DNA of 63,994 nt, filler included, from Reclinomonas americana ATCC 50394 (taxonomy: Eukaryota), in assembly GCA_048213135.1 (NCBI GenBank). It is 15 parts of 15 records of this genome, joined end to end, with 100 filler letters (N's around TTAATTAATTAA, not from the genome) between each part and the next. Parts side by side here need not be neighbours in the genome. Positions count along the whole stretch, not along the records: positions 47,904 to 58,508 come from AFZH01020056.1; 14 more parts are not named here. The stretch is one strand, 5' to 3'. The notes below the pieces were generated by a model. That model saw nothing but the letters and a program-made list of their open reading frames with translations. It made no database searches and was not told the origin of the DNA. Positions within the stretch are counted from its first letter, which is position 1; every line of letters begins with the position of its first letter. The position numbers and the translations under genes are program-made. Of the stretch, positions 48,286-57,779 are shown in pieces.

Positions 48286-51200
48286 ATGGGTGCCGCACAG
48301 AATGGAGCCACTGGCAGTGGAAAGAGGTTTGTTTTTGCGGTAGCTCAGTTGAAGTTGTCAAATTTTGAATGTGTGCGCAGTGCTTCTCCTCCTCCACAAC
48401 AGAGGAAGAAGGCGTGCGATATGGCATGGGGAGGCGATGTGAAGGCACTGCGCGAGTTGGTGGCGCGTGAGGGCGCACAGACACTGCTGAAGAGAGAAGA
48501 GATGCATCGAACAGGCTTCTCGGCATTTTACTATGCCGCTCAGGGAAGCCATCTCTCTGTGTTGGAGTATTTGTGGGAGGAGAGTGGCGTTGGGCCACAA
48601 CTCGCACAACTTGTCAACGACTATGGCTACACGCCGCTGATGATTGCTGCTCAAAATGGTCATCTGCAAGTGGTAAAGTGGTTGCTGGCCGATGAGCGAC
48701 GATGTCCACCGGAGATGGTGCGGGCGGTCAGCAATAACCGTGACTACAATCCACAGTGCACTGCACTGCATTGTGCTGCCAAGAAAGGCCACGAAGCCGT
48801 TGTGCGACTCATCGCCACTCGCTTCCCCGACCTCATTCCCATGGTCAACAAGTTTGGCACGACGGCGGCTCAGTTGGCACGCCAAGCGGGCAAGCAACAA
48901 GTGGCCGAGTTGCTCGAGCGCCTCGCTGCGCAGCCCGCACCACCATCACCGCCACAACCGCAGGAACAACAGTTGCAACCTCCTCCCCCAGGTGCGTCGA
49001 TAGATAGGGGGAATGAGCTCTGGAGGGGGAAGAGAGACGAGGAGTTGTCTGCAGAGACAACGGAAGGGAGGACGAGGAGGCACAAGCAAAGTCACAAAGG
49101 AAGACGAAATAGAGATCAGTGCATTCAGTGAGATGCATTCGTTTTCACTCTTTCTCTCTCTCTCGCTCTCCCTCTCGCTCTCTCTCTCTCCGTACTTCAC
49201 GCTGTTCATCTCCTCACCGATCTACGTTGACATTCGCAGCCGACGCTGGGCGGGAGGTGAGACTCAATTGCTTCTCTGTGGTGTTCTGTCTCCTTCTCCA
49301 TCTCTGACCTCTCGTTGCCGTATGCAGTCTGTGGATGGAGCTGCCGTCGACCGACTCCAGCGACAGCCAGAGCTGGAGCAGTGGAATGAAGCCGCAGGCA
49401 GCAGCAACGGCGTAGGGTTTGTATGTTGCTAGTGCGCATTCTTCATAACTTATCACTACTGTGTGCTGAATTGTGGATGGGTGCAGTTCTTCTCCTCCTC
49501 CACAACAGAGGAAGAAGGCGTGGGTGATGGGGAGGGAGGGCGATGTGAACGCACTGCACGAGTTGGTGGCGCGTGAGGGTGCGCACACACTGCTGAAGAG
49601 CGAGGAGATGTACCGCGATGGCGCATCGGCATTTTACTTTGCCGCCTGCAAAGGCCATCTCTCTTCGTTGGAGTACTTGTGGGAGGAGAGTGGTGTCGGG
49701 CCACAGCTCGCGCAAAGGGTCACCGACTCTGGCTGGACGCCACTGATTGGGGCTGCCTCGAATGGGCGTCTGCAAGTGGTGGATTGGTTGCTTGCCGACG
49801 AGCGGCGATGTCCGCCGGAGATGGTGCGGGCGGTCGCCAGTGACCGGGACTCCTATCCACAGTCCACTGCATTGCATTATGCTGCATGGAAGGGCCACGA
49901 AGCCATTGTGCGACTCCTCGCCACTCGCTTCCCCGACCTCATTCCCATGGTCAACAAGTTTGGCAAGGCGGCCTCGCAATGGGCACGTGATTATGGCAAG
50001 CAGCAGGTGGCCGAGTTGCTCGACCGCCTCTCTAGGCAGTCAGTACCACCACTATCACTCCCTCAGCTACCGGAACAGCAGCCTTTCCCTGCTTCCTCAC
50101 CTCCAGGTGCGTCGCCTTGCATGCTACACTGGCTATCATTCGATTCACAACGTGTCCATCAGCTGCAGTAACCGACGCAACGCAGGAGGTGAGAATGACT
50201 CCATCTATTGCGCGCTTTATTCCTTTTTCAGAGGTAGTCGATCTGACATGTAACGATGCCACCAACTAGATTCATGCCATTGATCGAGCTAACTCCGGAG
50301 ACTTGCGCCTTTTGGGAGTTGCGCAGGCGTACGCACTCGGCGTTTCTTTCATTCCCGCTCATTCTGCTGCCATGCAGTTGGAGCGTCTAAAGAAGGCCGA
50401 CCACGAGGCGGCCCTCTTGCTGTCCAAGATTGATCCGAGGATATTTGGCATTGAGAAGCGCGCGTCTGCGGCGCCGTTGGAGACACCTCTGGAAGAGTTA
50501 CGGAGGAATGCGCAGCAAGCGCAGGCTGCAGTCGATGCTGTTCGACTTCAACTCGAACGAGAACGGCAGATCCAAGAACTTGAGCGACAACTCGAGCAGC
50601 TGCGCCGAGAGCACGAAGGCACTGCGGTGCAGCTGCAACAGCGCGTTGGCGAGCTCGAGTGCGCCAATGCTGTGCTTGAACGGACGACTCGCGCTACGGA
50701 GGAGCGTGCAGCGCAATTGGAACAAGCCAGGGCAGTGGCAGTCGACCGAGCAGCAGCAGCGGAGCGATTCAATGCCGAGCTTCGGCACACTCTTGATGAT
50801 GAGCGACAAAAGAACACTCAGCTGCAACAAAACATCGCCGAAAGGCAGCGACAAACTGCCGACCTCATCGCTGAGCGCGACGATTGGAAGCGCAAAGCAG
50901 AGGAGATGGAACGCCAGCTTCGTGCTCTCTTTGAAATGGACTTTCTCAGGTGATGCTCACTCTCTTTCGATCCCATCAATCGTGCGACGATGTTCCTGAA
51001 TCTCCATCGATTGCACAGTGACCGCCGTCCAATCTTGATGCTCACCGAGGTCGTGCATGAGATCATTCCACTGGCACTCGGCTCCCTCCTCCAACAACTG
51101 GTCCATGATTTCTTCCCTGGCGAATTCGACATTGAGCAACTCTGCCTCCCATCCCCGCCACCAAGGTGTTGAAGAAGACACTGCCTTGAATGTGTTCCCT

Positions 51201-56800: not shown

Positions 56801-57779
56801 AGAACGCATGAGCAGCGGCTGGTAGTGTTAGGATGGTAAGAGGGTAGTAGCCAGGGCAGGCGAGGGGCAGCACTGGATGACTGTGGCGGAGACAGAAGAA
56901 CGAGAGAAACTGGCCGACTTCCCTCTTTTCTTCACTGACCATCGTGAACATTCCGCAGTGGACTGGATCTAGAAAAGCGGCTCATGGACCGATCGGCCGA
57001 CATGCAGTCACTGACAGTGAAGGAGCGCGTGCAGATCGGACTCGGTATAGCTGAGGGTGTGTGCTTTCTGCATCAGGTGAGATCACGATGTGTGTGCTGC
57101 AAGGCTTCGTTCCGAGACAATGAGAGAAGAAGAGAGGAGAAAGACCCATTCGCACACCTCCTGTCTTTCCGCAGAACGACATTGTGCACCGCGACCTCAA
57201 ACCCTCCAACATCCTCCTCGACAACCGTTGCGAGCCGCGCCTCGGTGACTTTGGCATCGCTCGTGTCTTTGACGAGGGAGAGGTAGGCTTCAACGATCTT
57301 TCTCTCAGCAGTTTGTTCTCCTAACCCTTTCCCCATCCACAGACACACCGCCACACCATGACGCGCTCCGGCTCGGCGTTCTACATTGATCCGCTCTTCT
57401 TGCAAACGTGCCAAATCCGCATGTCCATGGACATGTACGCCTTCGGCTTGATCCTCCTGCAGCTGCTGACAGGTCGTGAAGCACGGGTGCTGTTGGACCA
57501 AGTGCGGCGATGGGCGCGATCGCTGGACGCGGTGGATGTGGCGGCCGAGGCAGATCGCACGGCCGGCGAGTGGCGAGAGGACGTGGCGCGCGGCATGCTG
57601 AAGCTGGGAGTGCAGTTGCGTTGCACGAGTTGGTGAAGGAGAGGTCGACATTGATACTCACTGATGCGCGTAGATGCATGTCTCTGTCCGAGTTGGAGGA
57701 CCGACCGACGGCTGCGCAAGCCAAGGCCGTGATGAGTGAGCTGCGCGAAATGCTGGGTGGTTTCACGCTGGAACTTTAG
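53897..57779 (+). CDS. Gene B: ANK cassette x2 - coiled coil - RLK/Pelle/IRAK-family kinase
   Basis: ANK exons 54012-54646 and 54941-55548; coiled coil about 55724-56276; [13 protein letters not shown]...[21 protein letters not shown]...[27 protein letters not shown]...LQLLTGR, D..AGEW, DRPT. Confidence 0.88.

Follow-up and report, generated by a model that had tools for sequence, protein, structure and literature searches.

Organization of the locus

The stretch of DNA analyzed here (the window; 63,994 nucleotides, filler included, from the jakobid Reclinomonas americana ATCC 50394, assembly GCA_048213135.1) carries two adjacent genes, designated A and B, in which homologous heads, built of ankyrin cassettes and a coiled coil, are joined to different enzyme tails. 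Both genes occupy one 10.6-kb contig (47904-58508) and lie head-to-tail on the + strand with 340 bp between them (start codons at 48286 and 53897; stop codons ending at 53556 and 57779). The window consists of contigs, 15 in all, strung together by N44-TTAATTAATTAA-N44 spacers (e.g., 47804-47903); adjacency across these spacers is therefore meaningless, and no true neighbors of the two genes are found outside 47904-58508. The models of A and B, built from genomic sequence alone and hand-picked for an open frame, are as follows.

48286..53556, +: gene A, ankyrin-ankyrin-coiled coil-HEPN-like-kinase, 16 exons, 1202 residues (hand-built model, open frame, 15 of 15 introns GT-AG)
Exons of gene A: 48286-48326, 48381-48991, 49240-49256, 49328-49416, 49487-50106, 50169-50188, 50270-50949, 51019-51165, 51221-51491, 51555-51702, 51796-51912, 51981-52146, 52209-52444, 52977-53116, 53189-53386, 53449-53556
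53557..53896, no strand: spacer of 340 bp with the 3' end of A and the promoter of B (from gene coordinates)
53897..57779, +: gene B, ankyrin-ankyrin-coiled coil-RLK/Pelle-like kinase, 13 exons, 956 residues (hand-built model, open frame, 12 of 12 introns GT-AG)
Exons of gene B: 53897-53940, 54012-54646, 54705-54721, 54789-54874, 54941-55548, 55628-55647, 55724-56276, 56345-56538, 56597-56706, 56959-57076, 57175-57282, 57343-57614, 57674-57779

All 27 modeled introns are thus of the GT-AG type, and 24 of them measure 54-98 nt. Since kinase motifs occur in the proper order over five exons in each gene, a chance fit of hand-chosen models is unlikely.

Several smaller features accompany the models. 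Four of the 27 modeled donors (52147, 52445, 53387, and 57615) belong to an unusual class starting with GTTGCG, and a possible 60-nt in-frame intron with such a donor and a pyrimidine-rich acceptor lies inside exon 7 of gene A (50318-50377), where the frame is open either way. A short direct repeat is present 3' of gene B (58060-58129 and 58365-58436, 75% over 72 columns).

The head shared by genes A and B

The phases of exons 1-6 are identical in the two genes (2, 1, 0, 2, 1, 0), the micro-exons measure 17 and 20 nt in both, and the linker exon is 89 nt long in A versus 86 nt in B. Residues 1-680 of A and 1-654 of B are identical at 377 of 698 positions by BLASTP, and in DNA 49236-50114 matches 54701-55556 with 76% identity over 895 columns spanning both exons and introns. 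The claim of a sequence-only reading of this window, that two head-to-tail genes about 340 bp apart have a homologous 5' architecture, is therefore borne out by the models, phases, micro-exons, and protein alignment. Introns 3 and 4 can also be aligned between A and B, with scores matched by none of 500 shuffles each. Introns 5 and 6 align weakly (scores reached in 21 and 14 of 500 shuffles), and no alignment was obtained for introns 1, 2, and 7 or the 150 nt upstream, where 319, 338, 498, and 246 of 500 shuffles, respectively, reach the score. The four ankyrin cassettes of the two genes are 73-80% identical in DNA, with synonymous divergence (dS) of 0.35-0.84. Judged by these comparisons, the head shared by A and B is a recent copy. 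N-myristoylation was considered as a further feature common to both proteins and rejected, given that Gly2 is found in A only.

Ankyrin cassettes and their variable face

Each head contains two ankyrin cassettes of five repeats each, listed below.

48406..48924, +: cassette A1, five repeats, comprising two caps and three internal repeats (Pfam Ank_2 E 1e-21; AlphaFold2 predicted local distance difference test, pLDDT, 89.8; best fold matches DARPins of ~157 residues)
49512..50030, +: cassette A2 (Pfam Ank_2 E 3e-17; 75% identical to A1)
54064..54579, +: cassette B1, the most diverged of the four (Pfam Ank_2 E 5e-18; 53 private DNA differences versus 19-26 in the others)
54972..55478, +: cassette B2 (Pfam Ank_2 E 1e-21)

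With about twice as many private DNA differences, B1 is therefore either older or left out of homogenization. According to the DNA sites they share, the cassettes cluster by position in their 5' part and by gene in their 3' part (35 sites, p 0.015, in a test chosen post hoc), a mosaic that hints at conversion between cassettes.

The binding face is taken here, as a working assumption, to be the six positions per repeat that are randomized in DARPins. In the AlphaFold2 model of the cassette, these positions fall on the loops before the inner helices and on the ends of the inner helices, and the loop/inner-helix surface of ankyrins is described as a binding interface (PMC4986451, PMC8229355). 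Across the four cassettes, the 24 face columns hold a mean of 2.54 different residues versus 1.50 elsewhere (permutation p 1e-5), and the proportion of nonsynonymous differences (pN) is 0.41-0.62 in the face versus 0.10-0.14 in the framework, so that the face changes 3-6 times faster. Face pN equals or exceeds the synonymous proportion (pS) in five of the six cassette pairs. The ratio of nonsynonymous to synonymous rates (dN/dS) ranges from 0.79 to 3.81 for the face over these pairs and from 0.18 to 0.35 for the framework, with an interval below 1 in all six. These values indicate a strong contrast between a conserved ankyrin framework and a fast-changing face and suggest positive selection on the latter; in this respect, the head looks like a diversifying binder.

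An expressed sequence tag (EST) from Reclinomonas americana, EC791987 (P0031), shares this cassette, including both of its insertions, and is the sole match among 8 near-length hits. This partial and apparently frameshifted EST represents a paralogue carrying a fifth cassette variant, neither A nor B, and one member of the cassette family is therefore transcribed. P0031 agrees with A1 at 99 of 117 framework positions (85%) but at 6 of 18 face positions (Fisher p 1.4e-5); by these counts, it is an independent repeat of the conserved-framework/variable-face pattern. No close relatives of the cassette were found among 30 longer proteins (26-41% identity), 26 metagenome loci, 4 prokaryotic loci, or 8 viral-contig candidates.

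Coiled coils and the junction with the tails

The head ends in a coiled coil, encoded in each gene by a single exon.

50270..50949, +: coiled-coil exon of A, with ~85 front residues lacking a counterpart in B (heptad pattern; weak sub-cut-off matches to coiled-coil Pfam families)
50690..50782, +: coiled-coil motif common to A and B, the last clear DNA homology (blastn, 79.8% over 94 columns to 55946-56038)
55724..56276, +: coiled-coil exon of B (heptad pattern; homology to the coiled coil of A)

The two coiled coils are 41% identical over 148 columns and include two stretches that are 80-82% identical in DNA, the second of which contains the shared motif already pointed out by the sequence-only reading. 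The ~85 residues of A (50270-50520) reach from the last micro-exon to the shared coiled coil and have no Pfam match. When the two coiled coils were folded together without alignments, the complex prediction scored 0.00 against a mark of 0.34, and this result is not used as evidence.

The last clearly homologous DNA ends 167 nt short of the next donor in A and 238 nt short of it in B, and the intron that follows the coiled-coil exon differs in phase between the two genes (A, 2; B, 1). Exon shuffling at a single shared intron is ruled out by these differing phases. Effector shuffling at the end of the coiled coil, as originally proposed, therefore survives in part: the genes are chimeric, with a young head on old tails, but the switch is not located at a shared intron and homology ends earlier.

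The tail of gene B and its relation to that of gene A

56362..57743, +: RLK/Pelle-IRAK-like kinase of B (top PDB matches BRI1, SOBIR1, IRAK1, SymRK, and CERK1; motifs)

The glycine loop, beta-3 Lys, HRD, and DFG of this kinase are all intact. For the C-lobe, the first 8 of 736 PDB matches are BRI1, SOBIR1, IRAK1, and SymRK, with RIPK3 in ninth place, and for the N-lobe the first 9 of 26 are BRI1 and LysM/CERK1 kinases; a search for homologues of kinase exon 12 yielded none among 616 candidates. An RLK/Pelle-IRAK-like identity is thus supported by similarity to solved structures, as is the Pelle label given to B by the sequence-only reading, and the kinase would act in the manner of an RLK/Pelle cytoplasmic kinase.

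The kinases of A and B, both of the RD type, are identical at 70 of 261 positions (27%) and have none of five kinase introns in common. By this measure, the tails of the two genes are unrelated apart from generic kinase similarity and separated long ago, in keeping with the earlier description of unrelated C-termini. Given a young head and old tails, at least one of the two genes is therefore a graft.

The tail of gene A

51019..51702, +: candidate HEPN-like orphan domain, exons 8-10, residues 693-882 (motif helix compared with a Swt1-like profile)
51585..51602, +: R-H-x-x-S-H motif, R843-H848, candidate RNase (ribonuclease) site (sequence; R-phi-xxx-H definition)
51867..53499, +: kinase of A with a degenerate glycine loop (Pfam; Lys, HRD, DFG, and APE present)

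The segment R843-H-R-V-S-H848 is the only R-phi-x3-5-H motif with a polar second residue in A. It corresponds to the R-phi-xxx-H motif as defined for HEPN domains (PMC3710099) and also fits the Las1-type HEPN pattern (10.1101/760058). Stricter motif patterns, chosen afterwards, occur in 0.4% and 0.1% of shuffles. Against a Swt1-like HEPN profile, built from all 17 matches including one below the cut-off, the 22-residue motif helix of A scores 8.9 bits, a value reached by none of 2000 shuffles; the region tested had been picked for its motif, and the same profile gave a chance match of 5.7 bits in the kinase of B. A MAFFT alignment with Swt1-like HEPN domains brings the motif into register together with the first helix and a conserved Asp. 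Single-sequence AlphaFold2 predicts a helix-loop-helix at the motif, but at a low-confidence pLDDT of 36.6. A search with exon 9 returned no usable Atlas match, and a DZIP3-type HEPN profile was not built, there being no match above the cut-off in 401 bacterial genomes. Taken together, these results make it slightly more probable that residues 693-882 form a HEPN domain than that they do not, the identification being suggestive and tied to one motif-bearing helix.

The kinase that follows retains Lys, HRD, DFG, and APE and is devoid of GxGxxG. It matches the Pfam families PK_Tyr_Ser-Thr and Pkinase almost equally (6.4e-12 versus 7.4e-12), and its PDB matches are mixed (RAD53, CDPK, CDK6, and NEK7 with TAK1, CTR1, and RIPK1). 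Of the HEPN and TKL labels initially attached to this tail, the former is accordingly suggestive, and membership of the TKL group is possible rather than established.

Interpretation and alternative explanations

The explanation that we favor, with a probability of roughly 0.55, is that a single kind of head, consisting of two five-repeat ankyrin binders and a coiled coil, has been placed on different, much older enzyme tails within an expanded jakobid family to which A and B belong, the products acting as independent dimer-activated recognition enzymes. Each protein would be a soluble receptor-enzyme acting mainly with copies of itself. Its ankyrin faces would bind a ligand, probably a foreign or fast-evolving protein of prey bacteria, parasites, or viruses, and the bound ligand would cluster or re-register coiled-coil dimers. 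In B, two Pelle-type kinases brought together in this way could trans-phosphorylate; in A, pairing of two HEPN-like domains could create a single composite RNase site regulated by the attached kinase, much as in RNase L and Ire1 although with the domains ordered differently. Under the same explanation, local duplication of the head accounts for A and B being neighbors, with no need for them to act as a pair.

A more far-reaching version describes an intracellular immune repertoire of jakobids that is free of a nucleoside triphosphatase (NTPase), in which recombining DARPin-like cassettes under diversifying selection are grafted via the coiled coil onto either a Pelle/IRAK kinase or a HEPN RNase plus kinase, the latter an independent analogue of RNase L; mixed dimers would tune the RNase, with kinase-only partners serving as brakes or activators. 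We consider this version unlikely as a whole.

A number of observations weigh against the favored explanation. With regard to the face, the dN/dS interval excludes 1 in just one of the six cassette pairs, and the pairs are non-independent; variable ankyrin faces occur in non-immune families too. Dimerization is predicted from the heptad pattern alone. With regard to HEPN, the loose R-phi-xxx-H pattern appears in 9.5% of shuffles and twice in the ankyrins of B, and the whole-profile score of 17.9 is reached by 16 of 600 full shuffles but by 399 of 600 shuffles in which the motif was kept. Unrelated windows of A and B outscore the HEPN-like region, for which hhalign gives a probability of 0.09%. 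Residues 693-882 have no match in Pfam, PADLOC, or plasmids; no match was found in 1.84 billion proteins with remote queries consisting of single exons or of exons 9-10 plus intron rather than the spliced domain, and a PDB search of the region returned one chance match running through intron letters.

These same observations lend themselves to an ordinary signaling family unrelated to defense, in which tandem duplication and conversion reshuffle ankyrin-coiled-coil adaptors that aim kinases at endogenous partners; relaxed constraint would let the face drift, and the middle domain of A would be a non-catalytic helical spacer. In favor of such a family, the face interval includes 1 in five cassette pairs, the HEPN identity of A is unconfirmed by library, homologue, or whole-domain tests, both kinases are of the RD type, and ankyrin-kinase fusions also exist in unrelated eukaryotes, as in proteins of Mesostigma and a NEK of Giardia. 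However, the excess of pN over or parity with pS in most pairs is accompanied by a conserved framework, the fifth cassette differs at the same positions, and the motif helix agrees with Swt1-like HEPN over 22 residues, beyond R and H. We regard a non-defense family as somewhat unlikely.

It appears improbable that A and B form an obligate linked pair whose related coiled coils mediate heterodimerization and in which the Pelle kinase regulates the RNase, either through phosphorylation or by trapping A in inactive dimers with a single HEPN. The 340-bp linkage, the partly homologous coiled coils, and the intact Pelle-like kinase of B would all suit such a pair, and RPP2A/RPP2B offers one example of a plant pair arranged head-to-tail (PMC9528088). 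Nevertheless, the division into sensor and executor put forward by the sequence-only reading is not supported: each gene has a head as well as a tail, the two are arranged head-to-tail without a common promoter while plant pairs are mostly head-to-head, and an NLR-type NTPase is missing, with no Pfam hit to NACHT or NB-ARC in 25 frames scanned over both genes. Clear coiled-coil homology is, moreover, limited to two short stretches. The accompanying proposal that the Pelle kinase governs the RNase within an A-B heterodimer runs into the chemistry of the domain, in that characterized HEPN nucleases require two HEPN domains (10.1101/760058) and a two-chain A-B dimer would contain one; B could therefore not complete the active site of A. 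If A-B dimers form, B more plausibly restrains A, a brake role compatible with that chemistry, and could damp or phosphorylate it.

Finally, an artefact, either an assembly chimera in which ankyrin paralogues were attached to tails not their own or degenerating copies open only in the hand-built models, would be in line with a fragmented assembly that places these genes on a 10.6-kb contig among a string of contigs, but is highly improbable considering that exact repeats in the contig reach 48 nt at most, that the cassettes are no closer than stated above, and that 29 exons yield two frames free of stops, in which the kinase motifs are in order and the ankyrin framework is under purifying selection.

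Other contigs of the window

Three contigs at 1-19540, with a guanine-cytosine content of 0.64-0.66, encode a phage head-tail adaptor, major tail, tape measure, and minor tail proteins, and an endolysin (7 of 9 frames match PHROGs), and by this content they are phage or prophage DNA mixed into a eukaryote assembly. The remaining contigs include a polysaccharide deacetylase (38521-39288, -), a RasGAP (27151-28188, +), a leucine-rich repeat fragment (32764-33327, +), and a long open frame that resembles a protein in composition and matches no Pfam family (23029-23733, +).

Comparison with known systems

A literature search, from whose coverage subscription papers were mostly absent, found no paper on such genes in jakobids. 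Among characterized proteins, RNase L (ankyrin-kinase-KEN/HEPN RNase) and Ire1 come closest in parts list to gene A, which likewise combines an ankyrin sensor, a kinase, and a candidate HEPN-type RNase. The order is different, however, with the candidate RNase placed before the kinase (ankyrin-coiled coil-HEPN-like-kinase), and A has no match to Pfam KEN (PF06479) and only ~20 residues after its kinase. In addition, the ankyrin face of RNase L is tuned to one messenger, whereas that of A is variable and accompanied by a long coiled coil. RNase L originated from a kinase-RNase protein to which ankyrins were added, and independent gains of ankyrins took place on more than one occasion (PMC10400998).

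Among HEPN proteins of the DZIP3/hRUL138, CXorf38, and Swt1-like types, the motif helix of A aligns with the Swt1-like domains, but the domain of A has no Pfam match and, compared with the Swt1-like profile, is interrupted by two long insertions. Families that join HEPN to ankyrin, TPR, or NACHT, including the DZIP3 and CXorf38 types with ankyrins, have been described as expanded in single lineages and proposed as defense RNases, and the fusions listed in the available part of that source include no C-terminal kinase, unlike A (PMC3710099). For gene B, the best solved relatives of both kinase lobes belong to RLK/Pelle, which comprises plant receptor-like cytoplasmic kinases, receptor kinases, and animal IRAK/Pelle. 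B differs from these in having an ankyrin-coiled-coil head instead of a transmembrane, death, or U-box domain, and it comes from a jakobid, unlike the plants and animals for which the family is given (PMC10868138).

At the level of modular design, fungal NLRs with ankyrins resemble A and B in their combinatorial mixing of effector and repeat domains, positive selection on the concave ankyrin face, and concerted repeat evolution (PMC4986451). In contrast to these NLRs, A and B have no NACHT or NB-ARC switch, carry their repeats N-terminally and their effectors C-terminally, and copy whole five-repeat cassettes rather than single repeats. Plant paired NLRs (RGA4/RGA5, Pik-1/Pik-2, and RRS1/RPS4) are likewise two related, closely linked coiled-coil genes, but they are mostly head-to-head with split sensor and helper roles and an integrated domain, none of which is seen in A and B (PMC9528088).

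Self/non-self discrimination in free-living unicellular eukaryotes is little understood. Should both the RNase and the selection signal prove true, the locus would open a receptor family to experiment in a bacterivore that can be cultured, and an RNase L-like enzyme would have arisen by a second, independent route; otherwise, the locus would still illustrate domain grafting cleanly and place a Pelle-like kinase beyond the plants and animals named for RLK/Pelle. By its domain content, the locus is a clear case of one young variable head on two old outputs, in the manner of modular repeat-sensor receptors, and the candidate RNase accounts for most of what is surprising about it. Set side by side with the systems above, A and B would couple one young variable binder head to two outputs used in defense by animals and plants, in a lineage (probably Discoba) distant from both.

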